Shown in pieces: positions 20,729 to 62,533 of a DNA stretch of 64,000 nucleotides (its first letter is position 1; each line of letters starts with the position of its first letter). This DNA is from an uncultured Gammaproteobacteria bacterium (GTDB lineage: Bacteria; Patescibacteriota; Microgenomatia; Levybacterales; GWA1-39-11). The DNA lies in NCBI GenBank assembly GCA_964627245.1, contig CAZVGS010000001.1:89256-153255 (forward strand), given 5' to 3'. Under the pieces are notes generated by a model that was not told where the DNA came from, did no database searches, and saw nothing but the letters and a program-made list of their open reading frames with translations. The position numbers and the translations under genes are program-made.

Positions 20729-20852
20729 CCGAACTCCTTCACTAAAAAAGCTATAGGTTTGAATGAACTTACTTATTTTACCAGAAAGTATGTTTTACCT
20801 CAATTCGTATATTTTTGGACTTTTTTTTGCTATACTCAGTTTGAGGTCAAAT

Positions 20853-25426: not shown

Positions 25427-25433
25427 ATAAAAA

Positions 25434-25649: not shown

Positions 25650-25650
25650 T

Positions 25651-26055: not shown

Positions 26056-26085
26056 CTATATAGAATAACATAAATGAAGGTGAAA

Positions 26086-27378
26086 TTATTGCTTCTTGGC
26101 TATAAAATTTCTCTTTCTGAGCAACCTATGATATGTAATTGCAAATCTGTGCGCTTCATCTCTAATCCTTCTTACTAAATTTATTCCTGGTGTTGATTTA
26201 GGAAGTCTGACTTCGGCAAATTCAAGACTCCTAATATTTTTAAGCGGTACTATTATTGTTTCTTCTTTTTTTGCGAGCCCAACAAGAGGAAATTTTACAC
26301 TTTGTGAAGCAAGAGACTTTAGCGCAGCACTTACTTGACCCTTTCCACCATCAATTATTACAAGATCTGGACTTGGCCAATCCTGTTTCTTAAATCTTCT
26401 TGCAAGCATTTCGCTCATCATAAAAAAATCGTCAGGAGTATCTTTTGTTTTTATCTTAAAACGTCTATACTCTGATGACTTTTTATCTCCGTTTTCAAAA
26501 ACAACCATGCTACCTGTAGCGTTTTTTCCCGAAATGTTTGAAATATCATAGCACTCAATTCTTGTAAGTTTTTTAAGATCGGGAAAATAAGGCTTAAGCA
26601 GCTCAACTAGAGATGTTAATTCATTTCTTATCCTTTCATAGTAAAAATCCGGCTTTTCAATGTAATGGAACGGCTCAAAGGTAGAACTCGTTATAAGATT
26701 TATCCTATCTATTCTTTCTTGAACAGCTGATGCATTTTCAAACTCTTCCTTCTTCGAAAAATCATCCCGCTCTTTTACAAGATTATTTATAACAAGCTCT
26801 TTCTTGCCCATCAAAAACTTTTCAATTGAGGAAAGATTTTTTTTGTAAACCTGAAGGTTTTGAGGCTCTGCAGGCACACACGGACAAAGACCAATATGAT
26901 AGTAAAGGCATTTTCTTTTTGGATGATTTTTTACGGATTGATAAGGAAATATTCTTCGGAGTAACCTTAACACTGCTTTAAGAGCCGAAGCATCGGAATA
27001 CGGTCCAAAATACTTTGCATTTTTATCAATTTTTTTTCGTGTAAGTGTAACTGATGGATTTCCATTATTTGTTACTTCAATCATCGGATAAGACTTGTCA
27101 TCAACTAGCTTGATATTGTAAAAAGGTCTGTGCTTTTTTATAAGCTCGGATTCCAGTAAAAAAGCTTCAATCTCAGAGGCTACACTGATAGTTTTAATAT
27201 CCCTAATTTGGCTGACAAGCGTAATGGTCTTTGCATCAAGTGCCTTATTTGAAAAATAGGAAGATACCCGCTTTTTAAGGTCCTTAGCTTTACCTACGTA
27301 TAGAATTTTTCTTTTTTCGTCTTTGAACAAGTAAACTCCCGGTGTGGAAGGTAACTGCCGCAGTAATGATTGATACAC
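26086..27378 (-). CDS. uvrC: excinuclease ABC subunit C, short form (GIY-YIG plus RNase-H-like endonuclease domains; no recognisable C-terminal HhH)
   Basis: PGVYLFKDEKRKILYVGKAKDLKKRVSSYF (GIY-YIG); ECYDISNISG...SMVVFENGDKKSSEYRRFKIK and PDLVIIDGGKGQ (UvrC endonuclease domain). Confidence 0.75.
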   Translation of the reverse strand: MYQSLLRQLPSTPGVYLFKDEKRKILYVGKAKDLKKRVSSYFSNKALDAKTITLVSQIRDIKTISVASEIEAFLLESELIKKHRPFYNIKLVDDKSYPMIEVTNNGNPSVTLTRKKIDKNAKYFGPYSDASALKAVLRLLRRIFPYQSVKNHPKRKCLYYHIGLCPCVPAEPQNLQVYKKNLSSIEKFLMGKKELVINNLVKERDDFSKKEEFENASAVQERIDRINLITSSTFEPFHYIEKPDFYYERIRNELTSLVELLKPYFPDLKKLTRIECYDISNISGKNATGSMVVFENGDKKSSEYRRFKIKTKDTPDDFFMMSEMLARRFKKQDWPSPDLVIIDGGKGQVSAALKSLASQSVKFPLVGLAKKEETIIVPLKNIRSLEFAEVRLPKSTPGINLVRRIRDEAHRFAITYHRLLRKRNFIAKKQ

Positions 27379-29128
27379 CTATAATTCCTCCTAATATCAA
27401 AAGAAGTTTTATATCAGGAATAAAAGAAACACTTATATTCTTTTTATATCCCTTCTTTCCAACCTGAATTGTAATTATATATTTATCTTTTGTCAAAATA
27501 GGCGTATCCGAAAATGAGGTGGTTATCTCTTTGTGGCCATAAGGCGGAATATAGCCAATACTGAATTGTCTTTTTGAGCCCGTTGATGTCGTAATGTCTA
27601 CGGTCAAGTCCGAAAGAGGCGTATTCCCCGAGTTCTTAATTGAAACTGTTCCCTGAATTCCAAATTTGGGAAAAACAGCATTTGGAAAAGTATCACTAAT
27701 ACTTACTCCCTCAATCTTCTTAAACTCCTCAGCCGAAGCAAATTCTATTCCAACGTCCTTCGACTCTTTACTAAATTTGTAACCGCCTGCAGGAATTGGA
27801 TATTCACTGTCTTTCCCCTTTATCGCAAAAGCTACATGGGAAAAATCAAGTGAATTAAAATAGTCCATGCCATTTGTCGTATTCCCCCACGTTGGGTCTA
27901 TCATTATCCACTTTTTGCCTTTTGAATCGTAATACTCAGGCCATGCATGCAGTATGTCACTTACCAAAGAAAGCGGTCTTAGCTTCGAGTTGGTTGTATA
28001 AGCAAATCCCTCAACAGCTCTTGCCGGAATTCCGCTGGCTCTTGCGAGAGATATGAAAAGGTCGGTAAATTCTAGACAAACGCTATTTTTTGAGTCAGAA
28101 AGCGCTCCTTTCCCACCCAAGCGCAAATTGTCAGTCGCTATCTTATTTTTGTTATATAAAAGATTTGTTCTGACAAATTCATAAATCTGCTCAGGTGTTT
28201 TAAGGTCTCTGGACACCTCAATTATATCCGGATCGGATGCATCCCAGAATTTTTTACCCACAGTAAATTCCTGCTTTTTTTCATTATCAATATCTTCCAT
28301 CTTTGCCTCTGCAAGAACTTCAACTACACCCTTCACCTCAACCGTCTTTTTTTGCTGTGGCAACAGATTGTATTCCGCTATCCAATTACCATCATAATCT
28401 GCAGTTACGTTAAGCGGGTCTTCTGAGAAGGACGTAACTATAGTATTCTGGTAATTCGTTGTAGGGGGAAGTGCAATCTCAGTTGTTACTGGAAATAAAT
28501 TAGGGTTTGAAATATTGTACTTAAGGTGGAACTTGTAGTATTGCCTTAATCCAAAAAGGATATAAATACCCGACTTTCCAATTTCATTTTTGTCATATTT
28601 CAAAATTTTTGAATTAGCAACTTTTGAAGGTTTAGAAATTTTCGCTACCCCAAAAGTCTCAGGTACAGTAATTTGCGCGTAGTAAGAGTCAAATTCCGAA
28701 AGGTCTTCAATCCCGGGAACAGTAACCTCCCAAACCGACCCCTGTTTTTTTGCAATATCCTTTGTTACGAATTTAATTGTAAATTTATGGGTCTCACCAA
28801 GACCTGCGTACCTTTCCTGAAATGTTAACTTGATACTCTTGTTGTCGGGGTCTTTTGCATCAAAAGTTGCAGGTATTATACCGTCGTCATTGAATGCCTG
28901 AATATTTGATACATCTGAAAAACCTACCTTCATAGTGTAGCTTGGGGTGTAATAAAATTCGGTTTTGTTAGTTATTGATATATCTTGTGTAACCTCAGTT
29001 GACCCTTCTTCATCCACTTCATACAATGCCTCTACGTCAATTTCAAATTGTTCAGCAGCATATGAATTTTGGGGTAAAAAAACAAAAAGAAAAGCAAAAA
29101 GAAAAATTAGATAAAACTTCTTTGCCAT
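27290..29128 (-). CDS. secreted, C-terminally membrane-anchored transglutaminase-like (Cys-His-Asp) domain protein
   Basis: Signal peptide; SVCLEFTDLFISLARASGIPARAVEGFAY ... HAWPEYYD ... WIMIDPTWG core; C-terminal TM; overlaps the uvrC start by 89 nt. Confidence 0.65.
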   Translation of the reverse strand: MAKKFYLIFLFAFLFVFLPQNSYAAEQFEIDVEALYEVDEEGSTEVTQDISITNKTEFYYTPSYTMKVGFSDVSNIQAFNDDGIIPATFDAKDPDNKSIKLTFQERYAGLGETHKFTIKFVTKDIAKKQGSVWEVTVPGIEDLSEFDSYYAQITVPETFGVAKISKPSKVANSKILKYDKNEIGKSGIYILFGLRQYYKFHLKYNISNPNLFPVTTEIALPPTTNYQNTIVTSFSEDPLNVTADYDGNWIAEYNLLPQQKKTVEVKGVVEVLAEAKMEDIDNEKKQEFTVGKKFWDASDPDIIEVSRDLKTPEQIYEFVRTNLLYNKNKIATDNLRLGGKGALSDSKNSVCLEFTDLFISLARASGIPARAVEGFAYTTNSKLRPLSLVSDILHAWPEYYDSKGKKWIMIDPTWGNTTNGMDYFNSLDFSHVAFAIKGKDSEYPIPAGGYKFSKESKDVGIEFASAEEFKKIEGVSISDTFPNAVFPKFGIQGTVSIKNSGNTPLSDLTVDITTSTGSKRQFSIGYIPPYGHKEITTSFSDTPILTKDKYIITIQVGKKGYKKNISVSFIPDIKLLLILGGIIGVSIITAAVTFHTGSLLVQRRKKKNSIRR

Positions 29129-45242: not shown

Positions 45243-45920
45243 TTATGTTAACTTTGAAAGTATTAAGATGTCAAGATGCTTTGATAAACTGGTTGGTAAA
45301 GCCCCGGTCTTGAGTTTGATTTCCGTCTGCTTGAGCGCTTCGTAGAATGAAAAGAGACTTTCTTTCTTCCACATCTGAATTTGTCTTTTAAGATTTGATA
45401 GCTGCCATGGGGACATTTTTTCGGTTTCCTCGGTTCTTTCGCCTTTTGAGATCACAACCAGCTGTCTTACTCTTTTAAGTAGTGAATAGAAAACCTGCTC
45501 CGGTGCGTAGCTTTGTAAAAGCTCATGGTAAAGCTTAAAAGATTCTTTTTTACTTCTTGGGGAAAGTGTATCCAAAAATCTAAAATAATAGCTTGGAAGT
45601 AAAAATTCCTCAATTTTTGCGTTCTTAAGGGACGAAAAGCTGGTTTTTAATGCTTTTTTATCCTCCCATAAAATAATTGGAAATGTGGATTTTTCTGTAC
45701 TTAAATAGGAAAGGATTTCTTTTTTTTTCGGATTTTTAGTAATGTTTTCGACAACAACTGCCTTGTTCTCTTCAAAAAGCCCTGATGATAAAATGCTTTC
45801 CTCAAGTTCTTTTAACTGTAAATATTTACCGTCAAAAGTATTTGTGATCAATCCTTCACAAAGCGCAATCAAACGTTTGCGTGAGCTGGTTGTGTCGTCT
45901 CCATGCAGTATATAAATCAT
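45243..45920 (-). CDS. holA: DNA polymerase III delta-subunit-like protein
   Basis: N-terminal YILHGDD pattern and overall helical C-terminus; short (225 aa). Confidence 0.4.
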   Translation of the reverse strand: MIYILHGDDTTSSRKRLIALCEGLITNTFDGKYLQLKELEESILSSGLFEENKAVVVENITKNPKKKEILSYLSTEKSTFPIILWEDKKALKTSFSSLKNAKIEEFLLPSYYFRFLDTLSPRSKKESFKLYHELLQSYAPEQVFYSLLKRVRQLVVISKGERTEETEKMSPWQLSNLKRQIQMWKKESLFSFYEALKQTEIKLKTGALPTSLSKHLDILILSKLT

Positions 45921-46360
45921 AATTTTGCCGAATTTTTATATCTATCAAACAATGTATTAACCTCCCTGTCAATTCTTGTGTTTCCGTACTTATGGGGAAG
46001 AAGACTCCCGGAAAAGTTTTTCGGTATGTGTAAAAGCTCATGAATAATAACTTTTTTTCTGTCTTCATGATTTAGCCTGTCAAATTTTTCAGATATTATT
46101 TCCATGACATAAGCGGGATCTATCTCAAGCGCTGTCTGGAAGATCTTTGGAAATGACCAGATCCTGGCGTAAGCCCGGGCTTTTGAACCGGTAGTCCTGT
46201 AGCAAAAAACCCTCTTTGAATCTATATGAGACATATCAAGAGCGTCTATTATTTCTTCCATCTCCTTTTGAATTGCATGATCAACCTCCCATTCGAGCTT
46301 AACCGTTTTTTTTCTTTTAATAACTTTCTTTTTGGGTTTTGATGTAAAGAAAAATGTCAT
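45917..46360 (-). CDS. putative zinc metallopeptidase (HExxH)
   Basis: VIIHELLHI motif; 147 aa; ATGA overlap with the downstream gene. Confidence 0.4.
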   Translation of the reverse strand: MTFFFTSKPKKKVIKRKKTVKLEWEVDHAIQKEMEEIIDALDMSHIDSKRVFCYRTTGSKARAYARIWSFPKIFQTALEIDPAYVMEIISEKFDRLNHEDRKKVIIHELLHIPKNFSGSLLPHKYGNTRIDREVNTLFDRYKNSAKL

Positions 46361-50939: not shown

Positions 50940-51671
50940 TTATTTTTTGGAAATATTGAGGACTTTTTTTACAGGTGTTGCTTTTTTTGAAAGTGTTTTT
51001 TTAACAATCTCATTAATTATTATTCCATCTTTAAGCTCAATATTTCTCTGAGCTAATTTAGCGTACTCAGATTCATGAGTAACCATAATAATAGTTTGAC
51101 CCTGCCGATGCAAATCTAAAAAAATATCCAGCACTTTTTCAGAGGATTCGGAATCAAGATTTGCGGTAGGCTCATCGGCAAAAAGAATTTTTGGATTGTG
51201 AACAATTGCCCTTGCAATACTTACGCGTTGTTGCTGCCCGCCGGAAAGTTGGCTTGGAAGATTATCCAACCTATCCTGAAGATCAACCTTCATAAGAGCA
51301 TCTATAGCTTTTTTTTGAGCCACGCTTTCATCTAAACCCTGCATGAGAAGTGGCATCATGACATTTTCTTTGGCAGTAAGCATAGGAAGGATGGCATAGT
51401 CTTGGAAGATATATCCCAAATTTTTTAGCCTAAATGATATTTTTTCCTCACTCGTCAGTTTAGTTGTGTCTATGTCCTCAATAGTAACAGTGCCCTGATT
51501 TGGTGTGTCAAGCAAGCTAAGCTGATATAATAATGTGCTCTTGCCGGACCCTGACATGCCTGTAATTGCTAAGAACTGTCCACCCGGTACACTAAAGCTA
51601 ATTTTTTTTAATGCCGTTAGTGTGTTGTCACCGATTGTAAATATTCTCGTTACGTCTTTTACTGTGATCAT
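50940..51671 (-). CDS. ABC transporter ATP-binding protein (MacB/LolD/FtsE-like)
   Basis: [25 protein letters not shown] and ILFADEPT motifs. Confidence 0.85.
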   Translation of the reverse strand: MITVKDVTRIFTIGDNTLTALKKISFSVPGGQFLAITGMSGSGKSTLLYQLSLLDTPNQGTVTIEDIDTTKLTSEEKISFRLKNLGYIFQDYAILPMLTAKENVMMPLLMQGLDESVAQKKAIDALMKVDLQDRLDNLPSQLSGGQQQRVSIARAIVHNPKILFADEPTANLDSESSEKVLDIFLDLHRQGQTIIMVTHESEYAKLAQRNIELKDGIIINEIVKKTLSKKATPVKKVLNISKK

Positions 51672-51674
51672 ATA

Positions 51675-52949
51675 TTATCTTCCTAAAATCGCATCTAACG
51701 TATTTTGTTTGGTTACCATTCTTGCCGGAACATACCCCGAGATAAATGCGGTTAGAGTCAGGATAAGGCCTCGCATAACAAGCCCGCTTGTGGTAACTGC
51801 TAACTTCCCTTCCGTTACCGGGAATTTGAGAGGGTGAATATCAAACCAAGGCGCTAAAAACCAGATAATAATAAGACTTGAAAAAATTATTCCAGATAAG
51901 GCATAAAATAGTGACTGCATCACATACGAGACCTCAATTGACCGAGCTGATATCCCAATACCCTTCATGATACCTATATATTTTCTTCTTGTTATGGCAT
52001 TTACAAAAATTACAATAAAAATTGTAATAGCGCCTACAATAAGAGAAATTACACCCACAATATTACCCAGCATTGAAAAAGTCTTTTTCATATCAGATAT
52101 AGCTTTTGGCAATGTTTCTTCTGCGGTTTCGACAATAACGTCGGTGTCATAAGAGAAATTTTTTAGTATATACTCCTTTGCTTCTTCCCTGCTTGAGTCA
52201 GGGTTCAACAATACTGCAATTTCACTAGCATTAAGACTATGATTGTTGATAAGTGGACGCATTGTACTTTCAAGCATGAATGCACGGCCGTCGACCGTGC
52301 TATTTCCTGTATCAACTATTCCCCTCACAAAAACGTCGATATCCTCATTGCCAATAATCAGCTTTAGTCGAGATCCAATGGTTATATCCTTCAACCGTGG
52401 CTCTGTTGAGGAGCCCTGAGAGTATTCTACAAGAAGACTTTTTCCCAGTATAATTCCATCCGTGTCATATTCCTTCAAATATTCGCCTAAAATAATTTCA
52501 GAGGATATTCCCGTAACTGCATCTTCATCTTTCGGATTAATTCCAACTATCGTGCTGTTTACTCTCTGTCCAATATCAATAGCGCGGATTTTTACTTTAT
52601 TTTCATTTTCTAGTATTGCTGGTGTCGTGTATCTGCTTGAAGACGCCTGATAAGAAGGCAGGCTTTTTATCACAGAATTCAACATGCTAGACTGCGATAT
52701 TGAGACGTACTGAGTAGCTGGTTTTATTAAAATGTCTGACGAATAATAAGTCTTAAAAGAATTCATCATACCTTCAGCCAAACCGGTCAAAATTCCACCC
52801 ATCAACACCATATTAAGGAAAGTTAGTGACATTACAAAAATAATAAGAGCAGTTGACCAGGGATTATTACGTTTTAATTCTCGGAAAGCTAAGAATTGAC
52901 CTACAAATATATCTTTCTGAAATTTACTGAAGAGATCTAGTATTTTCAT
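51675..52949 (-). CDS. ABC transporter permease, FtsX/MacB-type
   Basis: N-terminal TM, large extracytoplasmic domain, C-terminal FtsX 3-TM bundle. Confidence 0.8.
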   Translation of the reverse strand: MKILDLFSKFQKDIFVGQFLAFRELKRNNPWSTALIIFVMSLTFLNMVLMGGILTGLAEGMMNSFKTYYSSDILIKPATQYVSISQSSMLNSVIKSLPSYQASSSRYTTPAILENENKVKIRAIDIGQRVNSTIVGINPKDEDAVTGISSEIILGEYLKEYDTDGIILGKSLLVEYSQGSSTEPRLKDITIGSRLKLIIGNEDIDVFVRGIVDTGNSTVDGRAFMLESTMRPLINNHSLNASEIAVLLNPDSSREEAKEYILKNFSYDTDVIVETAEETLPKAISDMKKTFSMLGNIVGVISLIVGAITIFIVIFVNAITRRKYIGIMKGIGISARSIEVSYVMQSLFYALSGIIFSSLIIIWFLAPWFDIHPLKFPVTEGKLAVTTSGLVMRGLILTLTAFISGYVPARMVTKQNTLDAILGR

Positions 52950-53899
52950 GGACTTTTACTATCTGGCCTTGCAAGAACTTCTGTTCCATTATTAAGACCG
53001 GATAGTATTTCGGCTTTTACAAATCCTTTTTCACCAATTTTTACTTCTGTAAGCTGACCGTCTCTGTCTTCAGCTTTTTGTACATATATTTTTCCGTCTC
53101 TATAAATTAAAGCACTCATAGGAACAGTAAGCGTATCTTCTTTGCGGATAAGTTGAATTGTAGCTATTGCAGTCATATTTGGTTTTACACTTGCAGGCAG
53201 GTCGTTAACTTGAATTTTTGATTCAAAAGTCACAACTCCTCCATCGATGGCTCCAGCTGTATCGATAGATTTGACTTTTCCCGACAAAGACAAGTCTTTA
53301 ATCGCATCAAAAGTGATATCCACTTTTTGTCCGGAAGAGATTTTTGGAGCATATATCTCATTGATATAAACAGTTAAATATGGCTCATCTTCCAAAGTAT
53401 CTTCATACGCAATCTTTGCCAGATTTACTTGAGCTTGAGCTGCTGAAATAGCAATGTCTGCCTCCTTGTACTTTGTTTCTGCTGATCGGAAATCTTTTTC
53501 TGCTTCAACAAGGACAGAGTCTATGCTTAATTTTTCGAGGGTTGTATACTCATCCTTAGTAGCCGGATTGGTCGTATTATCATTTTTATAATTCACACTG
53601 TTTTCTGCATCCAAAACTGCCTGTCTTTTCACCCACATCGCAGCATCTGCAGCCTGTTTGTTTTGCTTTGCGGTAGCTAATGAGTTAATTGCGCTTTGAT
53701 ATTCTGCGTATGCTGACGCTTTTTCTGTATCGGTTGCTGTCTTATGAAATGTGCCGCTTACCTGAACAGTTTCAAGAAAGGTTTCTTTTTGTACCGTATG
53801 CAACAGACGGGTATCAGGCTTTTGCAATACCAGAAATTTAAATCCGATGGCAGATATTACTATAAAAGCGACGACAAAATAAATTTTACGTAGTTTCAT
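52946..53899 (-). CDS. periplasmic adaptor (HlyD/MacA-type membrane fusion protein)
   Basis: N-terminal TM, coiled-coil hairpin region, beta-barrel C-terminus; overlaps the permease start. Confidence 0.65.
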   Translation of the reverse strand: MKLRKIYFVVAFIVISAIGFKFLVLQKPDTRLLHTVQKETFLETVQVSGTFHKTATDTEKASAYAEYQSAINSLATAKQNKQAADAAMWVKRQAVLDAENSVNYKNDNTTNPATKDEYTTLEKLSIDSVLVEAEKDFRSAETKYKEADIAISAAQAQVNLAKIAYEDTLEDEPYLTVYINEIYAPKISSGQKVDITFDAIKDLSLSGKVKSIDTAGAIDGGVVTFESKIQVNDLPASVKPNMTAIATIQLIRKEDTLTVPMSALIYRDGKIYVQKAEDRDGQLTEVKIGEKGFVKAEILSGLNNGTEVLARPDSKSP

Positions 53900-53900
53900 G

Positions 53901-54338
53901 TTATTTAATTTTAGCTTGAGAGTCCAATATGCTGGTAAATATTCTTATCATCTCTTTGATGTCATTTTCAGGAATGGCTTTAAAGACATTAAAATGAGTT
54001 TTTTGTAGTTGATCTTTAAACACTTTTGTCTGTTTTACCCCATCTTGAGTAATAGAAAGACAAATAATTCTGCGGTCGGATGAGCTATTTTCTCTTTTAA
54101 TGAAATTTCCCTCAGCAAGACGATTGGTAAGTTGAGTTGTTGCGGATATTGACATCGATAACTCATCTGCAAGAGACCCGACAGAAGCATTAGGATTCTC
54201 GTAGATGAATGAAAGTGCCTGGGCTTGAAGAAGCGTTACTGCCTTGTCTTCAAAAGAACTTGTTTGCTCGATGAGCTTTCGGACCTTGATTGCTTTGCTA
54301 AAAAATTCAGACAATAATTTTGGGTTAATATTTTTCAT
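53901..54338 (-). CDS. MarR-family transcriptional regulator
   Basis: wHTH with LTxxQ...LS pattern; first gene of the efflux operon. Confidence 0.7.
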   Translation of the reverse strand: MKNINPKLLSEFFSKAIKVRKLIEQTSSFEDKAVTLLQAQALSFIYENPNASVGSLADELSMSISATTQLTNRLAEGNFIKRENSSSDRRIICLSITQDGVKQTKVFKDQLQKTHFNVFKAIPENDIKEMIRIFTSILDSQAKIK

Positions 54339-54545
54339 TCTTTTAAGAAGATAGTTTATGACATAAATATTTTATAGTATAAACTATATTCTGTCAAGGA
54401 ACGATTTCATAATACAGATTTTAAATTCAAACCTTTTTACCTAAATACTTATTTGTAAGCAGTGCTTTCGAATATAGAAATTCAGGTATATCCTAAATGT
54501 AATCTTATTGGAGAAAGACTGTCAACCTAAGTAATCAAAAAAAGT

Positions 54546-54575
54546 TAAGATATTCCGCCAATGTGGTATAATTTG
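54546..54575 (+). promoter_or_regulatory. candidate promoter TTAAGA-N17-TATAAT upstream of the kinase gene
   Basis: gTTAAGAtattccgccaatgtggTATAAT, about 45 nt before the ATG at 54618. Confidence 0.3.
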
Positions 54576-54617
54576 TCCACAAAAATACCAAAGAAGTACT
54601 CAGACCAGTAATATTCT

Positions 54618-55601
54618 ATGGAAAGACACATTAGTGAATTGGACTCTCAATATACTCCCGAAGTTCTAAAAACTGTAAGGCAGGACCCATTTCTTGCGAA
54701 TTTGAAGGAAATTAATGAAATCACTCCTGTTTCAAATGGTGTTTCTCATTACGTATATAAAATTACTACAGACAAAGATAATTTTTTTTTGAAGATACGA
54801 GAGAATCACTTTTCAAGGCTTCCTGAAATTGCAATAAGACCAGAGGACATTAAGAGTGAATATAAAGCACTAACCATTTACGAATCTTTCATGCCAAATA
54901 ATTTCCCCCAAATAGTCTCTTTTAGTGACCAAAAACACTACCTAATAACTACAGACGCAACATTCAATGGTATGTTGTTCCAGGAAACTTTAATAAGTGG
55001 AGACGCTACAGGAGAAATGGTTTATAATCTTGGATCAACATTGAAGGAGATTCATACTTCAACTGCAGCATACACGGATGATATCAGGGAAGAGGGGGAT
55101 AGCACCCATTATGATCTGAAGCTATTGCATAGATTTGAATTCGCTAAAAACGATGGACTCGATGAGGTAGTTGAGAAATTAAAAAAACAAAAAAAACAAT
55201 TAATTTTGGGGGACCCAGCCCCTAAAAACATTGGCATCAATAATAATGGACTACTCTTTATCTTCTTTGATCTCGAAGATGCTCATCAAGGTAATCCCAT
55301 CTTTGACTGTGGCTATTTGCTTGGTCATATATTATTACATAATCTTTTGGATCCAAAAAAAGCGAGCGAATTAGCGGATGACTATACAAGCGGTTATGGA
55401 ATAGAAAAGTTTGATGAAGATATGCTTAAAAAAATTGCATTGGGAATAGTAAGATACCGATTAGGAGGTAAAATTCCATATCCGGCACCAAATATTCCGC
55501 AAGACATGAAAATACCGATAATGAATAGAATCGAAAACATTTTTCAGGTAAATCTCAAAACTTCAGATTGGACTACAATATTTACTTATTTGAAAGCGTG
55601 A
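54618..55601 (+). CDS. aminoglycoside-phosphotransferase-like kinase (protein-kinase-like fold)
   Basis: GDPAPKNIGI (HGD-equivalent loop) and IFFDLEDAHQG (DxE/D metal site). Confidence 0.5.
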   Translation: MERHISELDSQYTPEVLKTVRQDPFLANLKEINEITPVSNGVSHYVYKITTDKDNFFLKIRENHFSRLPEIAIRPEDIKSEYKALTIYESFMPNNFPQIVSFSDQKHYLITTDATFNGMLFQETLISGDATGEMVYNLGSTLKEIHTSTAAYTDDIREEGDSTHYDLKLLHRFEFAKNDGLDEVVEKLKKQKKQLILGDPAPKNIGINNNGLLFIFFDLEDAHQGNPIFDCGYLLGHILLHNLLDPKKASELADDYTSGYGIEKFDEDMLKKIALGIVRYRLGGKIPYPAPNIPQDMKIPIMNRIENIFQVNLKTSDWTTIFTYLKA

Positions 55602-55615
55602 AAAAATTAAATTTA

Positions 55616-57040
55616 ATGCTTATTGGCGTGGGTCCGCATGCAAAGCGGATTTATTATCCAATTTGCAAACAGGAAAAGTCTTTAGGCGTTAAAATTGTAT
55701 GTGGGGTTGATTTAATAGAAAAAAGGAACGACATTGAGGAATACTTTGAAAAATATCAAGATAGAATGCCCATGCATTATGTGGCTAAGAATGCATATTC
55801 TAAAAAACTAACAAAACAAACAGCAGCAGCACTTAACAAGCTTGTACGAAAATATCAAGTCGATGGAGTAATCATTTCAACTGATCCTTTAGCTCACCTT
55901 CGCTATGGCTTGTGGGCCATTAGCCAAAATCTTCACGTATTGATGGATAAACCTATCTCTGCAGTCCCAGGATCATCAGTAAATGAGACAGCAGCAAGTG
56001 AAATTCTTTCTGATTTTTATTTACTGAAGAAAGCTCATATCAAAACAGGTAAAGATGCAATATTTAGTATCATGGCTCAAAGGCGGTTTCATCAAACATA
56101 TATAAAAGTACGCAAAATGGTAGAGGAAATTTTCAAAAAAACTAATTGTCCTATTACTTCTATTCAAACCGCTCACTCTGACGGTCAATGGAGACTTCCA
56201 TCGGAAATAATTGATATGGATTATCATTCTTTTGATCAGGGCTTAGGCAAGATTTCTCATTCTGGGTATCACTTCCTAGATATGATTTGCTGGCTTATAA
56301 GCGCTGCTACTACAGAGAAGAAGAAGGTAAATAATGTTGACATTTTTGCGCAAGCAATGCGTCCTACTGATTTTATCTCTCAAATAAATTTTTCTGATTA
56401 CAAAAATTTATTTGCAGATTTTTCCAAAATAAACAAATATTCCGAAAAAGAATTTAGAGAAATAACAAAAAAATACGGAGAAATTGACACATTTATCAAT
56501 TTCGCTTTCAAACATAATTCTGATGTAATTACTTTGAGTAGCTCAAATTTAATGCATAATGGTTTCTCTCAGCGAGGTTGGCTATTACCTAAGAAAGATT
56601 TGTACAAGGGAAATGGAAGAGTGAGACAGGAAGCAATGTTCATCGAACAAGGCCCCTTTCAGTCTATTTCGCTCGTCTCTTATCAGTCAAATGAAATAAA
56701 TAAAAATTCTAATAAAAAAGTTTATGATATAGGCGGTGAGTACCACTTGGACGTACATGTTTTTAGAAATAACAATTATAATCCAGAGTGGAAAGACTAT
56801 GAAAAGTTCTCGGTTGAGGATTTATCAGAAAATAGACTAAGAGGTTATTCTAGGGGTCATCAAGAAGATGCACGAAGAAACTCGATTATTGAATTTATAG
56901 AATGCGCGAAAGGTAATCACATAAAACAAAAATCTAGTCTGCTATCTCATGAATCTACTGTTAAACTTATGAGTGGAACATATCTTTCAATGGCGAAAAA
57001 ATTTAATTCTGAAAATCCTGTTGTAAATATCAGGCTCTAG
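55616..57040 (+). CDS. Gfo/Idh/MocA-family NAD(P)-dependent oxidoreductase-like protein with a long C-terminal extension
   Basis: MLIGVGPHAK Rossmann N-terminus and DGVIISTDPLAHLRYGLWAISQNLHVLMDKPI matching the Gfo/Idh/MocA consensus; start moved to the internal Met to avoid overlap. Confidence 0.55.
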   Translation: MLIGVGPHAKRIYYPICKQEKSLGVKIVCGVDLIEKRNDIEEYFEKYQDRMPMHYVAKNAYSKKLTKQTAAALNKLVRKYQVDGVIISTDPLAHLRYGLWAISQNLHVLMDKPISAVPGSSVNETAASEILSDFYLLKKAHIKTGKDAIFSIMAQRRFHQTYIKVRKMVEEIFKKTNCPITSIQTAHSDGQWRLPSEIIDMDYHSFDQGLGKISHSGYHFLDMICWLISAATTEKKKVNNVDIFAQAMRPTDFISQINFSDYKNLFADFSKINKYSEKEFREITKKYGEIDTFINFAFKHNSDVITLSSSNLMHNGFSQRGWLLPKKDLYKGNGRVRQEAMFIEQGPFQSISLVSYQSNEINKNSNKKVYDIGGEYHLDVHVFRNNNYNPEWKDYEKFSVEDLSENRLRGYSRGHQEDARRNSIIEFIECAKGNHIKQKSSLLSHESTVKLMSGTYLSMAKKFNSENPVVNIRL

Positions 57041-57043
57041 TCC

Positions 57044-57739
57044 ATGAGATTTCAAATACTAGGAAGGAATACTATTGAGAAGGCTTCAGGTCTCGTTGTG
57101 GTAATAGACGTCCTCAGAGCGTTTACAACAGCATGCTACATATTTTCAAAAGGAGCAAAAGAAATCGTGCTTGCATCAACTCCCGAGGAGGGACTTCTTT
57201 TGAAAAAGCAGTATCCTAAATATCTTTTAGTAGGTGAGCGTAAGGGGCTAAAACTCACAGGATATGATTATGGAAACTCTCCATTTGAAATAAAACAAGC
57301 CAGTCTTTTAGATAAGACTGTCGTGATGACAACTTCCCTGGGGACCTCAACTCTTCTTGATTTGTACACATTATCAAAAGGCAAAGAATTTATTACTGGA
57401 AGTTTTGTTAATGCATCGGCCATTATTAACTACATAAAAAAAAGCAAATATGAAATAGTGAGCCTTATATGCACAGACGACTCCTTCAATGATAACGAGG
57501 ATTACATGTGTGCAAAATATATAGTAAGCAACTTTATAGGAAAATCTCTTGACTTTCAAAAAATAAAGGAAGATTTGACCAAACATCCAATATCTGAAGG
57601 GTTTCTTAAAAAACCTTTAACTAAATACGCACCAGATGATTTCAATCTGTGTTTGCAAGTGAATAAATTTAGGTTTATTATAATGTCAAATAGATCAGCT
57701 GAGAGAATACTTTTGAAGCCTATAAATTATGAGCGCTGA
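57044..57739 (+). CDS. 2-phosphosulfolactate phosphatase (ComB) family protein
   Basis: VVIDVLRAFTTACY motif and the family-typical 231-aa length. Confidence 0.65.
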   Translation: MRFQILGRNTIEKASGLVVVIDVLRAFTTACYIFSKGAKEIVLASTPEEGLLLKKQYPKYLLVGERKGLKLTGYDYGNSPFEIKQASLLDKTVVMTTSLGTSTLLDLYTLSKGKEFITGSFVNASAIINYIKKSKYEIVSLICTDDSFNDNEDYMCAKYIVSNFIGKSLDFQKIKEDLTKHPISEGFLKKPLTKYAPDDFNLCLQVNKFRFIIMSNRSAERILLKPINYER

Positions 57740-59201
57740 AAGAAGTCAAGGTGCACCCAATAGATTTACGCTCCGAAAAGAATACTTTGGCGGTCTGGTC
57801 CTTGATTCCCATTCACCCAAGAATGAATTTATCCAGCCAGATGAATATGAGTTTTTAAGCGAATTAAAAGAAACAGAAGCGGCTATATATGATCAAGTCG
57901 CCCAAAATAATCCCAATTTAGCCCAAAGAGTTGATGCTTTTGCCCAGACTGGATTTGTGGAAAAAGGTCCTAATGGTGAAATTCTTTTGACAAACATCAG
58001 ACTTGTGGATCCTCCTCAAACAATCCGCGAAGGCGTTCTTACCGCTCCCATACGTGTATACGATATGTATACCAGAAAATGCAATCTCACCTGCGAACAT
58101 TGCTACGCTGCAAGCAATCCATTTATTAAAGAGGATAGACGCACCTTAGATCAGACAGCAGATATCATGAGGAAGTTTTATGATGCCGGAGCTATAGAAT
58201 GGCGCTTCACGGGTGGGGAACCCACAGTTTACCCTGACTTATTTGACGCTATTGATGTTGCGCAAGGATTAGGTATGAATGTTAGCCTGAATTCAAATGG
58301 ATGGTGGAGCGAAAATACTGCAAAAAAAGTACTTAGTGCTGGAATATCAGAAATGGTAATTAGCATTGAAGGTGAACCAGGAACAAATGACTTAAGAAGA
58401 AAGGTGGGTTCTTATGATCATGTAGTCGACACTCTCGATAAAGTGGCGCATCACAATAAATTATATCCGGATAAATATATGAATGTAATTATAAATACCG
58501 CGGTAGGCAGGGATAATATAAATGACGTAGAATTTGTGGTAAGACTGGCTGCAAAATATGGACACGATATGAACTTTCTTCCATTAAAACCCAGCGGAAG
58601 AGCAAGACATGGACTGCAAACCACGATGCTAAGCCCAAGGGAATGGATGGAATTTTCAAGAAAAGTAAACGAACTTAGATCGGATCCCGAAATAAAAGAT
58701 TCAGGAATTAAACTCAGTCATAAATATAAAGATCTGTTCTGCCCTACTGCTCCTGATCAATCCAATAAACCTTATCCCTTTAACTATGCTGAGTGTGGAG
58801 CAACAACCACAGCTATAAGCATGTTTCCAGATGGAAGGGTTTTCGCATGCCCCTTCGTAATAGAATTTGATGTTAATAATAAATTCGTTGGCCCCAATAT
58901 GATTACGTCATCAGTGGAAGACGCATGGAACGACTTACATATTGACACATTCAGAACTGCCGAGAAAACGCAAGGCTGCTCTAATTGCGGACATCTATCA
59001 AAAGGGTGCAGGGGTGCATGCAAGGCAACAGTTCTTGGGTATGGAGGAGAAATATCGGACGGTAAATTAAAAGGAGAAGATCCGTATTGCTATGCAAATC
59101 TCATGAACGAGAATGGCAAAAACATAGTAATTCCTGAAGACAAAAAGCAAGGACGCCAAATGCTCCCACTTATTGCAATAGATGATATCCCCACACTATA
59201 A
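57729..59201 (+). CDS. radical SAM enzyme with C-terminal SPASM/twitch Cys cluster and an N-terminal extension of about 115 aa
   Basis: CNLTCEHCY (CxxxCxxC) at residues 118-126; C-terminal CSNCGHLSKGCRGACKA; 11-nt overlap with the ComB-like gene. Confidence 0.8.
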   Translation: MSAERSQGAPNRFTLRKEYFGGLVLDSHSPKNEFIQPDEYEFLSELKETEAAIYDQVAQNNPNLAQRVDAFAQTGFVEKGPNGEILLTNIRLVDPPQTIREGVLTAPIRVYDMYTRKCNLTCEHCYAASNPFIKEDRRTLDQTADIMRKFYDAGAIEWRFTGGEPTVYPDLFDAIDVAQGLGMNVSLNSNGWWSENTAKKVLSAGISEMVISIEGEPGTNDLRRKVGSYDHVVDTLDKVAHHNKLYPDKYMNVIINTAVGRDNINDVEFVVRLAAKYGHDMNFLPLKPSGRARHGLQTTMLSPREWMEFSRKVNELRSDPEIKDSGIKLSHKYKDLFCPTAPDQSNKPYPFNYAECGATTTAISMFPDGRVFACPFVIEFDVNNKFVGPNMITSSVEDAWNDLHIDTFRTAEKTQGCSNCGHLSKGCRGACKATVLGYGGEISDGKLKGEDPYCYANLMNENGKNIVIPEDKKQGRQMLPLIAIDDIPTL

Positions 59202-59483: not shown

Positions 59484-59633
59484 CTATTTTCGAACGGATT
59501 GTTTCTCACGCTTTAAAGGTTTGGGAAGTGTACCAGCAGCTTCTCTAGCTAGGAAATCATCAGCTAGTAATTCTGCAAGCTCATCTAATATTTCATCTTC
59601 AGTTTTCTTTTTCTTAACTACCTGACGGGACAT
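59484..59633 (-). CDS. small acidic ORF, 49 aa (MSRQVVKKKKTEDEILDELAELLADDFLAREAAGTLPKPLKREKQSVRK), speculative
   Basis: Overlaps the 3' end of the 161-aa ORF by 16 nt in another frame; below the ORF-track size cutoff. Confidence 0.2.
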   Translation of the reverse strand: MSRQVVKKKKTEDEILDELAELLADDFLAREAAGTLPKPLKREKQSVRK

Positions 59634-60103
59634 AATATAAAAGCATGATGATGAACAATAGTATTTTTATATTCTATTGATTCAAGAGAGGTAGTAACAC
59701 TTGTTTCAGGGTAACTACCGGTTAGTTTATATCTGTATTGCCAATCTCCCTCAGGTTCAGGTTCACAATCTTCCATTAATCTAGTCTTCTCTCCAAGTTC
59801 TAATATCATATGTTTTAAATATGAGCCCACTTCTTTATCAGATATACCTAATGACGATAAAACTTCATCATTTGGTGTTCCGCCAGCATACAAACGAGTA
59901 AAGGTTTCATCTCCTACACGGACCAGTTCCTGTCCCCCACCAGAGCTACTAGCAAACCACTCGTCATGATAAGTTGCACCCTCTGGAAGCTCAACATGAC
60001 TCACATTACCAGAAAAATCTCCACGATTTATACTTTCAGGTTTGCCTCCAGCATACCCAGCGTTTAGACCGTTTGTTAAAGCTGATTTAAATTCCTGTTT
60101 CAC
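59618..60103 (-). CDS. hypothetical protein, 161 aa
   Basis: Intact ORF; no recognisable motif. Confidence 0.4.
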   Translation of the reverse strand: MKQEFKSALTNGLNAGYAGGKPESINRGDFSGNVSHVELPEGATYHDEWFASSSGGGQELVRVGDETFTRLYAGGTPNDEVLSSLGISDKEVGSYLKHMILELGEKTRLMEDCEPEPEGDWQYRYKLTGSYPETSVTTSLESIEYKNTIVHHHAFILCPVR

Positions 60104-61098: not shown

Positions 61099-61142
61099 TT
61101 TGAGTTGAAACAAAATTTTTCGTATAATACGATTGCAACAAA

Positions 61143-61216
61143 AGGCCCCATCGTCTAGTGGCCTAGGACGTCGGGCTTTCATCCCGAAAATCGCGGGTTC
61201 GACTCCCGCTGGGGTC
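61143..61216 (+). tRNA. tRNA-Glu (anticodon TTC)
   Basis: Hand fold: acceptor GGCCCCA/TGGGGTC, anticodon stem TCGGG/CCCGA with loop CTTTCAT, T arm GCGGG-TTCGACT-CCCGC; lies inside the 5' extension of the called 466-aa ORF. Confidence 0.75.
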
Positions 61217-61257
61217 ACAATTAACTTGCTCACTTTGGTTGAGATTTATTTTGTCAT

Positions 61258-62533
61258 TATGGGTGTAGTACTTATTTTAGGAACTCAGTGGGGAGATGAG
61301 GGAAAGGGAAAAGTTATCGATGCGCTGAGCAAAAACTCGGAATTCGTTGTCCGCTTCCAGGGCGGTAACAACGCAGGACATACGGTCATAAATCCTCTTG
61401 GAGAATTCAAACTTCACCTAATTCCTGCTGGTGTATTTGAAAAAAAATCAAAAGTAGCAATAGCAAATGGTGTTGTAATTGATCCTGAAGTACTTGTTGA
61501 AGAAATTGAAAGTCTTGAAAAAGCAGGAATTGATCTCAAAAATAGGCTATACATATCTCCAAGATGCCATATTATTTTGCCTTATCATAAGCTTTTGGAA
61601 AAGGTGTATGAGGAGGCAAAAGGAAAAGGCAAAACAGGAACCACGGGGCGTGGAATAGGTCCTGTCTATTCGGATAAAGTCGGCTACAACGGCATCAGAC
61701 TTTATGACTTAATGGATCCTAAAAAATTTAAGAACAAGCTTGAAATTCAGCTTGGGTTAAAAAATGCAATTCTTAAATCATACGGAATAAAACCTTTGTC
61801 ATTTAGCACCATAGAAAAAACAATGAAACCTATACGAAAAAAGTTGCTGCCGTATATTAATGAACCCTTTCCCTTCATCCAAGAAGCATTAAAGAAAAAT
61901 AAAAAAATTATGATCGAGGGCGCGCAAGCTGTTTTTCTTGACAACGACTGGGGAACCTACCCATTCGTGACTGCTTCAACCATCGTTTCTGGCGGCATAA
62001 CGGGAGGTGCGGGAATTGCACCTAAATACCTGAAAGAAATTATTGGAGTAATCAAAGCATATACCACAAGAGTTGGTGAAGGACCTTTTCCGACTGAATT
62101 TGATGCTAGCGAAAGTGAGCATATCAGAAACCTTGGCCTGGAATTTGGAGCAACGACAGGAAGGGCAAGAAGGTGCGGATGGCTTGATTTGGAGATGGTA
62201 AGATTTGCAGTCGAGTTGAATGGAATTACTGACCTTGCACTAACCAAAATTGATGTCCTAGATACATACAAAGAAATAAAGCTCTGCACCGGCTACAAAT
62301 TGGAAGGCAAAATCCTGAGGTATTATGACGGTGATGAAATCTTTCTTGATAACGTAGAACCTGTATACAAGACGATGAAAGGCTGGCAATCAAGCACAAA
62401 AGGCGTAACCTTATTTGATAAGCTTCCTAGAGAAGCAAAAGCTTACATCGCGGAGATTGAAAAGCAGACAGGAGTAAAAGTCGCATACATCTCAACAGGT
62501 CCTTCAAGGGAAGAGATGATAGCAAGAAGCTAG
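61258..62533 (+). CDS. purA: adenylosuccinate synthetase
   Basis: MGVVLILGTQWGDEGKGK P-loop, GGNNAGHT and later PurA motifs; start placed at the Met after the tRNA (coordinate +/-1). Confidence 0.85.

Follow-up and report, generated by a model that had tools for sequence, protein, structure and literature searches.

Two divergently transcribed gene groups lie back to back across a 279-nt intergenic region in the 64,000-nt stretch of DNA analysed here (the window). On the plus strand, a cassette of four genes opens with an APH-fold small-molecule kinase (54618-55601; Pfam APH), continues with a Gfo/Idh/MocA-fold NAD(P) sugar dehydrogenase or reductase (55568-57040; assigned by AF2 and Foldseek) and a ComB-family phosphomonoesterase of the 2-phosphosulfolactate-phosphatase fold (57044-57739; Pfam 2-ph_phosp), and ends with a radical SAM-SPASM enzyme (57729-59201; Pfam Radical_SAM and SPASM). 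The dehydrogenase gene starts at a TTG (55568), the ATG at 55616 being an alternative that is used in public assemblies, and the spacing along the cassette runs from a 14-nt gap or 34-nt overlap through a 3-nt gap to an 11-nt overlap. The minus strand carries an efflux operon composed of a MarR-family regulator (53901-54338; Pfam MarR 1e-11), an HlyD/MacA-like membrane-fusion adaptor (52946-53899; HlyD_3 1.6e-4, and RND_mfp 1.6e-12, under cut-off), an FtsX/MacB-type permease (51675-52949; Pfam FtsX 2.7e-10) and a LolD/MacB/FtsE-type ABC ATPase (50940-51671; ABC_tran 6e-35) that matches the LolD and MacB models at ~1e-62, under their cut-offs. All eight ORFs, with the domains that an earlier note on this DNA had assigned to them, were recovered at these positions by ORF calls and Pfam plus NCBIfam searches (AF2/Foldseek for the dehydrogenase), and the tight spacing of the four plus-strand genes was confirmed from the ORF coordinates. 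Between the two groups, a consensus scan picked out a plus-strand promoter-like site upstream of the cassette (TTAAGA, 16 nt, TG-TATAAT; 54545-54572), which is a pattern match only, at 10/12 with an extended -10. A repeat search found an inverted repeat with 22-nt arms that are 82% complementary (54346-54392); it lies over the marR promoter-like site, overlapping the minus-strand -35/-10 at 54397-54369. As this palindrome sits over the marR promoter and ~150 nt from the cassette promoter-like site, it suggests that MarR controls its own operon, and it is probably the MarR operator of the efflux operon, not of the cassette.

The plus-strand genes make up a genuine operon that is conserved across many Patescibacteria. 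The order kinase, Gfo/Idh/MocA-like (GFO-like) dehydrogenase, ComB-like phosphatase, radical SAM enzyme recurs in ~20 independent CPR (Patescibacteria) loci (L004, 7, 8, 11, 13, 22, 24, 25, 27, 30-34, 45, 50, 53, 60), and the pair of GFO-like and radical SAM genes stands alone in 12 others (L010, 14, 35-42, 47, 49). Because the same gene order is kept in many divergent genomes, the cassette is not a chance arrangement, and this ordered co-occurrence marks the four genes as a compact functional unit. Such co-occurrence, on which the earlier note had staked its interpretation beforehand, was thus found. Among non-redundant loci the commonest partner of the radical SAM gene is the GFO-like dehydrogenase (23/31), followed by the ComB-like gene (19/37, directly upstream) and the kinase (11/25). 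In the closest genome, a Candidatus Levybacteria, similarity is limited to 54610-59111, precisely the four cassette genes. Some cassettes contain inserted accessory genes (HIT, NTP_transferase, a second APH/fructosamine kinase, a methyltransferase, a 2H phosphoesterase and a HAD hydrolase), a set that also surrounds a ribonucleotide reductase (RNR)-like gene in one Levybacteria genome.

The kinase exceeds the Pfam APH cut-off (2e-11) and retains residues invariant in 13 orthologues: the ATP lysine K59, the catalytic loop GDxxPKN (D199, N204) and the Mg-binding D218. Its PDB relatives are all weak (PsiK, E 1e-3; MtnK, E 0.5). By sequence the dehydrogenase scores merely 0.0018 against GFO_IDH_MocA; its confident AF2 model (pLDDT 89.5) matches Gfo/Idh/MocA sugar dehydrogenases at a Foldseek E of 3e-15, the best being glucuronide-3-dehydrogenase, levoglucosan dehydrogenase, 1,5-anhydrofructose reductase, scyllo-inositol dehydrogenase and WlbA, at ~12% identity. 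A Rossmann GxGPHA, DKP and HSGYHxxD are invariant in 30 homologues. The structural alignments cover the entire protein, and the C-terminal extension described previously is not a separate domain: ~100-130 extra residues are inserted within the C-terminal substrate domain. The phosphatase (Pfam 2-ph_phosp 7.6e-43; PDB 2yyv and 1vr0, ~1e-19) belongs to the same fold family as the coenzyme M enzyme ComB, but it scores well under the NCBIfam ComB equivalog cut-offs (115 vs 235 bits), the locus has no ComA, ComC or ComDE genes, and ComB is a methanogen enzyme whereas the host here is a CPR bacterium.

The radical SAM enzyme (Radical_SAM 1.1e-16; SPASM 1.8e-5, residues 356-420) carries a CX3CX2C motif (C118/C122/C125; 58080-58103, plus strand) and, in its SPASM region (58794-59090, plus strand; homologue alignment and Pfam SPASM), seven cysteines (C356, 374, 417, 420, 427, 431, 454), all invariant in 26 homologues; the seven would be enough for two auxiliary 4Fe-4S clusters. 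Residues 13-93 (57765-58007, plus strand) are predicted by AF2 to fold as an RRE-like winged helix of three strands, three helices and three strands (pLDDT mostly 83-96; 84 for the whole model), and an N-domain motif, RFTLRKEYFGG..D, is invariant in the same 26 homologues. The recognition element sought in this N-terminal extension therefore appears in the predicted fold but not in the sequence, as the domain searched alone matched neither PqqD nor a PDB RRE. Foldseek ranked SuiB first (E 5e-18), then SkfB, CteB and PqqE, and the family profile aligns full length with SuiB and CteB. Among NCBIfam models the mycofactocin maturase MftC fits best (1e-28, residues 102-454, under cut-off), and viperin models match just the generic core. 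A housekeeping identity, raised earlier as a possible objection, is excluded: 0/61 NCBIfam matches reach their own cut-off and anSME is distant.

The most recurrent cassette neighbour is an atypical class II-like RNR homologue: among 132 non-redundant neighbour proteins two RNR domains lead (12 and 11 proteins), the next families having 4 each. The gene is divergently paired with the cassette in many lineages and stays beside it despite rearrangements in L006, L026 and L029; this pairing points to deoxy-sugar or nucleotide chemistry. In its 120 best homologues PPC[ASG]E (APC in two) replaces NPCGE, with Pro for the catalytic Asn, and none of the 120 has the C-terminal Cys pair, so the protein may need another initiation or reduction system. 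No RNR-like gene was found in the window, in the flanking sequence retrieved for the nearest relative or in loci with only the GFO-radical SAM pair, and more distant members are paired with a PfkB kinase and adjoin no radical SAM gene. The GFO-like family, with ~1,750 homologues against ~200 for the radical SAM enzyme (about ninefold), also occurs without the latter, and all seven such contexts examined adjoin a kinase and/or a phosphohydrolase. In L061, L063, L065 and L067 the partners are a TMK/dNK-like kinase and NUDIX (L061 additionally has a weak HD match), and in L069 a TMK-like kinase, CYTH and a methyltransferase. In L068 an orthologue of the cassette kinase (hhalign E 2e-40) and a His_Phos_1 phosphatase stand beside the GFO-like gene, together with ComC-like Ldh_2, PIG-L, WbqC and NAGPA-like genes, a set that points to amino or acid sugars.

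What might such a cassette do? Building on the observed gene families, catalytic motifs, operon conservation and partner genes, we tentatively propose a phosphorylate-redox-dephosphorylate pathway whose target is a sugar moiety, be it that of a nucleoside, of a nucleotide or of a phospho-sugar, and to which the radical SAM enzyme adds a radical step; with the same caution, we regard the cassette as a self-contained CPR metabolic operon rather than a cluster that makes and exports a peptide natural product. The triad would work on the sugar portion of a phosphorylated carbohydrate, most probably a nucleoside, a nucleotide, or a sugar that is acidic or linked to a nucleotide. Substrate, step order and product we infer, each chemical step by analogy. 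The APH-type kinase would activate a hydroxyl group and the radical SAM/SPASM enzyme would generate a 5'-deoxyadenosyl radical for a step beyond polar chemistry, candidates being elimination of a hydroxyl or phosphate at the vicinal position (cf. RNR, viperin, AprD4), epimerisation or rearrangement. With NAD(P)(H), the Gfo/Idh/MocA enzyme would then oxidise or reduce the secondary alcohol or ketone so formed, and the ComB-type phosphatase would take the phosphate off. In favour are the conservation of the four genes as a unit in which the efflux genes never share, the RNR-like gene as top recurrent neighbour, the kinases and phosphohydrolases beside GFO-like genes that lack a radical SAM partner, the accessory genes inserted in some cassettes, the resemblance of the dehydrogenase model to sugar, cyclitol and NDP-sugar dehydrogenases, and the precedents of cordycepin, oxetanocin and AprD4/AprD3. 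The phospho-sugar or cofactor-type product that the earlier note had entertained as its alternative is the better fit to this context of RNR-like protein, nucleotide/sugar kinases and phosphohydrolases. Against the proposal, GFO-like contexts are mixed, some being of nucleotide type and L068 of amino/acid-sugar type, the RNR-like gene is missing from the loci named above, and the radical SAM architecture, an RRE-like N-domain with a two-cluster SPASM, is typical of peptide or protein maturases; we know of no small-molecule radical SAM enzyme bearing an RRE.

It is on this architecture that another explanation builds, one that we consider rather unlikely but weigh seriously: the radical SAM enzyme would modify an unlinked ribosomal peptide or partner protein, giving a RiPP or a redox cofactor that, like mycofactocin or PQQ, would serve the dehydrogenase, while kinase and phosphatase tailor or regulate. 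The enzyme shares winged helix, CX3CX2C barrel and complete 7-Cys SPASM with the RiPP maturases SuiB, CteB, SkfB, PqqE and MftC, which are its best structural and profile matches (the top Foldseek matches are all RiPP maturases), and Gfo/Idh/MocA enzymes can keep NAD(P) firmly bound, as do the nicotinoproteins that mycofactocin serves. Unlike those maturases, the radical SAM enzyme adjoins neither a precursor peptide nor a peptidase nor an RRE protein of its own, its identity to them is just ~14-18% with NCBIfam scores well under every curated family cut-off, and it shares its operon with a sugar dehydrogenase, a kinase and a phosphatase. No conserved small ORF of at least 12 aa lies beside the cassette in 41 non-redundant loci, the intergenic gaps within the cassette are mostly just 3-70 nt, no peptidase or MftB/D/E/F-like genes were seen, and the dehydrogenase family mostly occurs without a radical SAM gene; the RiPP reading is weak. 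The compact unit, the non-housekeeping radical SAM enzyme and the RRE-like domain of the first interpretation have thus held, while the modified peptide and the dedicated export have not. The eight-gene biosynthetic locus of that interpretation, exporting its product through a MarR-controlled, MacAB-like pump, has in its favour the common intergenic region of the divergent operons and the MacB- and DarD-type ABC models that match ATPase and adaptor, under cut-offs. The MarR, adaptor, FtsX and ABC genes adjoin the cassette in none of the other loci compared, nothing beyond the four genes is common to the nearest relative, and the palindrome lies on the marR side; already contradicted by these comparative data, the export model is scarcely credible, and the efflux operon is an independent chance neighbour, by conservation unrelated to the cassette. 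It resembles MacAB/YknXYZ-type systems in its separate ATPase, FtsX-type permease, adaptor, upstream MarR and putative palindromic operator, but falls under all curated equivalog cut-offs; CPR bacteria are not known to have an outer membrane, so a TolC partner is not expected.

Two further explanations turn on radical chemistry itself. The radical SAM enzyme might generate a radical for, or mature, the RNR-like protein of other genomes, its RRE-like domain docking on that protein or its conserved QPxKL tail, while kinase, dehydrogenase and phosphatase feed in substrate or reductant or recycle by-products. The recurrence of this neighbour, its altered motif and missing Cys pair, and the radical SAM activase of class III RNRs speak for such a partnership; we hold it improbable, as the gene is in neither the window nor the GFO-radical SAM-only loci, its distant members adjoin no radical SAM gene, and the known activase NrdG, a small protein, is not known to have a SPASM or an RRE. 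Salvage of the by-products 5'-deoxyadenosine or 5-deoxyribose, with the kinase acting like a methylthioribose/5-deoxyribose kinase before oxidation and dephosphorylation, would account for the link to a radical SAM gene and the faint similarity of the APH profile to PsiK and MtnK. It is very improbable: the MtnK similarity is non-significant, the triad is widespread without any radical SAM gene, and the cassette has no nucleosidase, isomerase or aldolase Pfam domains.

The logic of the proposed sugar pathway has precedents elsewhere. The Cns1-Cns3 mechanism of cordycepin achieves net deoxygenation of a nucleoside sugar, and the cns3 product contains a kinase domain. The cordycepin cluster joins an oxidoreductase and a phosphohydrolase to cns3 (PMC10710699). 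The likeness of this 3'-deoxyadenosine pathway lies in its oxidoreductase/phosphohydrolase/kinase combination; it is fungal, uses an HD-domain phosphohydrolase instead of ComB and is not known to involve a radical SAM enzyme. The oxetanocin plasmid locus presumably also holds an RNR homologue. The synthesis of oxetanocin A (OxsB/OxsA) resembles our model in joining a dehydrogenase and an HD phosphohydrolase to a radical SAM enzyme, whose substrate there is a deoxynucleotide (PMC9204698). OxsB is B12-dependent, unlike the cassette enzyme, OxsA is an HD-domain protein and the pathway is that of a plasmid-borne Bacillus antibiotic. AprD4 and AprD3 are the radical SAM dehydratase and the reductase of apramycin C3' deoxygenation; in this pair, and in viperin with nucleotide kinases, a radical SAM enzyme removes a sugar hydroxyl beside an NAD(P)H reductase or kinase. 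AprD4 and viperin differ from the cassette enzyme in that neither is known to have an RRE or a full SPASM, but the logic of AprD4/AprD3 is the same as that of the minimal pair of GFO-like and radical SAM genes in 12 loci.

The four plus-strand genes at 54618-59201 form a compact cassette, as the earlier note proposed, and they co-occur in other genomes. They encode an APH-fold kinase (APH; 54618-55601), a Gfo/Idh/MocA-like oxidoreductase (GFO; 55568-57040 and 490 aa, or 474 aa if read from 55616), a ComB-family protein (ComB; 57044-57739) and a radical SAM-SPASM protein (rSAM; 57729-59201). The open reading frames originally called in the cassette and its neighbourhood are borne out, and their families are confirmed by Pfam and NCBIfam, with the exception of GFO, which is sub-threshold by sequence and is placed by AlphaFold and Foldseek. 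More than 100 cluster-level homologues of rSAM were found at 40-80% identity, nearly all in Patescibacteria (CPR). Sixty loci around such homologues, taken from genome and metagenome collections and designated by L numbers, were searched with the window proteins. The order APH-GFO-ComB-rSAM is repeated in approximately 20 of them, a two-gene GFO-rSAM core is present in 12 further loci, and ComB-rSAM variants exist too. When near-identical loci were collapsed into 41 groups and presence was counted only where the flank was long enough, GFO was found beside rSAM in 23 of 31 cases, ComB in 19 of 37 and APH in 11 of 25. In the nearest genome, a Candidatus Levybacteria MAG, rSAM is 81% identical. 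Six-frame comparison with the Levybacteria locus yields similarity at 54610-59111 only, which corresponds exactly to the four cassette genes, and both flanks are unrelated. In a ComB-rSAM-ComB variant the contig ends at that point. Several Parcubacteria-type loci (L035-L039 and L014), in which prolyl-tRNA synthetase is always upstream, have conserved DNA directly 3' of the rSAM gene; it shows up as spurious short ORFs that resemble one another, in both orientations, and could be a non-coding RNA gene.

Divergent from the cassette, on the minus strand, lie genes for an ABC ATPase (50940-51671), an FtsX/MacB permease (51675-52949), an HlyD-like membrane-fusion adaptor (52946-53899) and a MarR regulator (53901-54338). 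The ATPase, permease and adaptor genes overlap or abut in one operon and constitute a MacAB-type tripartite set. An inverted repeat with 22-nt arms (54346-54392) sits on the marR promoter-like site, and the promoter-like site of the cassette itself (54545-54572) lies approximately 150 nt away; a palindrome on its own promoter is typical of an autoregulated MarR operon. The suggestion that these genes provide dedicated export for a cassette product is not sustained: adaptor, permease and marR genes are absent beside the cassette in all other loci compared, the pump genes adjoin it in this genome only, and similarity to the nearest relative ends at the cassette. We treat the efflux genes as an independent MacAB/YknXYZ-like pump. 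The wider flanks comprise phosphoglucomutase, a holA-like gene, Dus, RuvC/A/B, an MscS-like channel, tRNAs, PurA and GreA, and these housekeeping genes place the locus within the core chromosome. The presence of the purine-salvage gene purA 2 kb downstream of the cassette is probably a coincidence. Its mechanically called ORF (61133-62533, plus strand) overlaps tRNA-Glu (61144-61218), and since the Pfam adenylosuccinate synthetase match begins at residue 48, the true start is probably near 61274. Farther away, between the holA-like gene and a 381-aa ORF with no family match, an ORF at 45917-46360 (minus strand) encodes 147 aa and has a ‘putative phage metallopeptidase’ domain (5e-25). The stretch at 20000-28000 has a G+C content of 0.34-0.37 vs 0.39-0.44 across the first 20 kb, adjoins two tRNA genes (20207-20728) and may be a foreign or surface-glycan region.

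Is the cassette a RiPP locus? The architecture of rSAM invites the question. Both the Radical_SAM and SPASM models of Pfam match, and in an alignment of 26 homologues the CX3CX2C cysteines C118, C122 and C125 and seven SPASM cysteines are invariant, while an N-terminal motif, RFTLRKEYFGG..D, is strikingly conserved. The family profile matches SuiB (5v1q) and CteB (5wgg) starting at their N-termini, and the best Foldseek matches of the AlphaFold model (pLDDT 84) are SuiB, SkfB, CteB and PqqE, with a full-length alignment to SuiB. The predicted fold of residues 13-93 runs from three strands through three helices to three more strands, which is the winged-helix topology seen in RiPP recognition elements (RREs). 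However, the N-domain alone retrieved neither a PqqD nor an RRE match from Pfam and the PDB, so that the RRE that the earlier note sought in the N-terminal extension is putative and assigned by predicted structure only. Sixty-one NCBIfam models match rSAM, all far under cut-off. The best is the mycofactocin maturase MftC (TIGR03962, 100.5 bits vs a cut-off of 265), and a mycofactocin system was rejected on this score and because the MftA/B/D/E/F partner families are missing from the cassette by Pfam. A housekeeping anaerobic sulfatase maturase, the other identity that had been considered, is a distant relative: anSME (4k37) matches the rSAM profile at E 1.3e-9, behind SkfB, BlsE, MoaA, SuiB, CteB and PqqE, and does not appear in the top 25 NCBIfam models. 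Searches against defence-system and phage libraries gave nothing beyond viperin models that match the generic radical SAM core.

The partners expected of a RiPP maturase are not conserved alongside rSAM. When ORFs of at least 25 aa were clustered across the 60 loci, nothing recurred except the large genes and the shadow ORFs opposite them, and ORFs of at least 12 aa downstream of rSAM had nothing in common between loci, in agreement with the original report of no precursor peptide in the flanks. Gaps between adjoining cassette genes are usually only 3-70 nt. No recurrent peptidase appears in the 25 commonest Pfam families of 132 non-redundant neighbour proteins (Peptidase_S51 is present in 2 proteins). 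The SPASM radical SAM architecture behind the modified-peptide reading stands, but with no co-conserved precursor, peptidase or exporter in these loci, that reading is unlikely. Between the rSAM gene and tRNA-Lys there are two minus-strand ORFs, of 49 aa (59484-59633) and 161 aa (59618-60103), neither of which was found outside contigs identical to the window; the longer has no match in Pfam, NCBIfam, PADLOC or PHROG, and the shorter, scanned against PADLOC alone, has none there. The rSAM family itself displays several variations. A tail of approximately 30 aa at the C-terminus (residues 461-490; 59112-59201), modelled with low confidence, is common to the window protein and its Levybacteria-type relatives, with the motif L(I/L)P(L/V) in all of these, and most homologues are devoid of it. 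In one homologue, P0108 (787 aa), two rSAM-SPASM modules are fused in tandem, and it offers no Rosetta-stone hint. Another (L012:173-2901) is split, with residues 10-93 at 173-424 and residues 91-463 at 1786-2901, by an insertion of approximately 1.3 kb that carries an IS256/Mutator-family transposase (Pfam 2.6e-62). More distant paralogues with 38-47% identity (L016, L018, L043 and L044), of the kind doubled in P0108, are clustered with two or three more rSAM/SPASM genes, together with a B12-binding-type rSAM, a 200-aa protein that Pfam does not match and a borderline DUF4922 (HIT-like) protein.

The other three cassette proteins also belong to known families. APH exceeds its Pfam cut-off (44.6 vs 23.2 bits), and the ATP-binding lysine K59, the D199 and N204 of the catalytic Asp/Asn loop and the Mg-binding aspartate D218 are invariant. 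GFO falls short of the gathering cut-off of Pfam GFO_IDH_MocA (19.4 vs 24 bits, E 0.0018), and searches of the PDB by sequence retrieved nothing for either kinase or dehydrogenase. The GFO structure is confidently predicted (pLDDT 89.5), and Foldseek aligns it over its whole length with Gfo/Idh/MocA sugar and cyclitol dehydrogenases (E 3e-15 to about 1e-12, approximately 12% identity), among them glucuronide-3-dehydrogenase, levoglucosan dehydrogenase, 1,5-anhydrofructose reductase, scyllo-inositol dehydrogenase and WlbA. The motifs GxGPHA (Rossmann), MDKP and HSGYHxxD are invariant in 30 homologues. By its predicted structure GFO is a Gfo/Idh/MocA oxidoreductase with a Rossmann fold and a C-terminal substrate domain. 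The ‘large C-terminal extension’ described initially is real as extra length, but the model resolves it into insertions inside the substrate domain and not into a separate C-terminal module. ComB passes its Pfam cut-off (146.7 vs 26.4 bits) and misses every NCBIfam equivalog cut-off, the best scoring 115 vs 235, which argues for a paralogous subfamily.

The GFO-like family extends well beyond the cassette, with approximately 1,757 homologues vs approximately 200 for rSAM, which makes it about nine times larger. In each of the seven rSAM-free contexts inspected, members of this 480-aa family are accompanied by a kinase and/or a phosphohydrolase. The kinases are TMK/dNK-like or of the cassette APH type, and the phosphohydrolases are NUDIX, a weak HD match, CYTH or His_Phos_1. 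Four of these loci (L061, L063, L065 and L067) combine the GFO-like gene with a thymidylate/deoxynucleoside-kinase-like P-loop kinase and NUDIX; L061 additionally has the weak HD phosphohydrolase match, a ThyA-like gene and a SLOG gene, and L063 has MazG. In L069 the partners are a TMK-like kinase, CYTH and a methyltransferase. In L068 they are a His_Phos_1 phosphatase and an APH kinase orthologous to that of the cassette (hhalign E 2e-40, 31% identity), adjoined by Ldh_2, NAGPA-like, WbqC and PIG-L genes. These arrangements suggest a general CPR module of kinase, GFO-like dehydrogenase and phosphohydrolase, and the contexts without rSAM indicate that rSAM and the ribonucleotide reductase (RNR)-like gene described next are additions in a subset of such units.

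Among the 132 neighbour proteins, RNR domains are the commonest, in 12 and 11 proteins, and the next families reach 4 each. The RNR-like protein of these loci has approximately 570-594 aa. Its gene is divergent and upstream of the kinase in 12 loci (L007, L013, L022, L024, L025, L030-L034, L050 and L060) and is still near the cassette despite rearrangements in L006, L023, L026 and L029. The 64-kb window does not contain it, and neither do the flanks retrieved for the nearest relative. The protein has the barrel and the N-domain (4e-61), its closest match in the PDB is the class II NrdJ of T. maritima (E 2.5e-35), and the three catalytic cysteines and the glutamate are in place. Among the 120 best homologues, the finger loop is PPC[ASG]E in 118 and APC in 2, vs NPCGE, so that the catalytic asparagine is replaced by proline or alanine, respectively. 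This asparagine is considered essential for ribonucleotide reduction. The C-terminus ends 8-13 residues past YRDGS with a conserved QPxKL and contains no cysteine and hence no redox pair. With the asparagine replaced and the C-terminal cysteine pair missing, a canonical class II RNR was rejected. The clade is large and apparently undescribed, with proteins of approximately 570-600 aa; members assigned to it include L025:1418-3172 (minus strand) and homologues in L006, L007, L013, L022-L024, L026, L029-L034, L050, L060 and L070-L074. More distant members do not lie beside a cassette; they overlap a PfkB kinase gene, in one instance fused to NUDIX. A further Levybacteria genome has the RNR-like gene facing genes for a methyltransferase, an APH/fructosamine-type kinase, a HIT protein and an NTP-transferase, the same accessory set that is inserted in some cassettes. 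In the RNR-kinase intergenic regions (26-82 nt) only a TATAAT-like element is common, and inspection by eye disclosed no convincing NrdR box.

What chemistry might the cassette perform? The gene neighbourhoods suggest small-molecule chemistry in which a phosphorylated sugar is the substrate, and we tentatively propose a pathway, inferring its substrate, step order and product, in which the kinase would phosphorylate a sugar moiety, rSAM would carry out a radical step on the phosphorylated sugar, GFO would reduce a keto group or oxidize the sugar moiety, and ComB would remove the phosphate last. Nucleosides or nucleotides are the substrates most often implied, given the RNR-like gene, the TMK/dNK-like kinases and the NUDIX, HIT, NTP-transferase, CYTH, MazG and ThyA-like genes. 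The L068 context and the glucuronide- and sialic-acid-type structural neighbours of GFO raise amino or acid sugars as a second option. The main evidence that runs counter to a sugar pathway is the maturase-type architecture of rSAM, which would fit a peptide or protein substrate, including a peptide-derived cofactor for the dehydrogenase. We consider such a substrate rather unlikely; the survey of the 60 loci brought up no recurrent precursor. A separate and narrower model, with the atypical RNR-like protein as the target of rSAM, would draw on the frequent proximity of the two genes; the window and its nearest relative carry the cassette with no RNR-like gene nearby, and we regard this model as very improbable. 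A bolder version of sugar chemistry, which we judge improbable, is that rSAM and the triad of kinase, dehydrogenase and phosphatase form, with the PPCxE-type RNR-like clade, an undescribed radical-SAM-linked CPR system that makes or remodels deoxy-sugar nucleotides. Here rSAM might be a new radical initiator or maturase for the RNR-like enzyme, and this would constitute a new class of RNR, or the system might provide a parallel deoxygenation route independent of RNR chemistry.

The components of the cassette each belong to a known enzyme family, and their conserved combination is in no curated model; none of the four proteins reaches the cut-off of a curated family model. A description of the operon was not found in the literature on radical SAM enzymes, CPR/Patescibacteria, RNR and phosphosulfolactate phosphatase, and an RNR phylogeny paper makes no mention of Patescibacteria, Candidatus or asparagine (PMC9531940). 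The intact four-gene operon is present in Levybacteria, Roizmanbacteria, Pacebacteria, Parcubacteria and others, and is widespread in a bacterial radiation that is still poorly understood. The genomes of CPR bacteria are tiny, and these organisms are believed to rely on nucleotides and sugars obtained by salvage; an operon kept across so many of their lineages is unlikely to be dispensable. The pairing of a maturase-type radical SAM enzyme with sugar/nucleotide-type enzymes is unusual, and it led to a large RNR-like clade without a residue deemed essential for ribonucleotide reduction. Once known, the chemistry could reveal a CPR source of deoxy-sugars or deoxynucleotides and extend the scope of SPASM enzymes past peptides. 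Rule-based genome mining keyed on rSAM-SPASM could wrongly annotate loci of this type as transporter-equipped RiPP clusters. The logic that we propose for the cassette resembles that of several known pathways. AprD4/AprD3 combine a radical SAM diol dehydratase with a reductase, and cns3 of the cordycepin cluster carries a kinase domain. That cluster employs an oxidoreductase and a phosphohydrolase together with cns3 to yield a deoxynucleoside (PMC10710699), and oxetanocin synthesis relies on a radical SAM enzyme, an HD phosphohydrolase and a dehydrogenase that act on deoxyadenosine nucleotides (PMC9204698).
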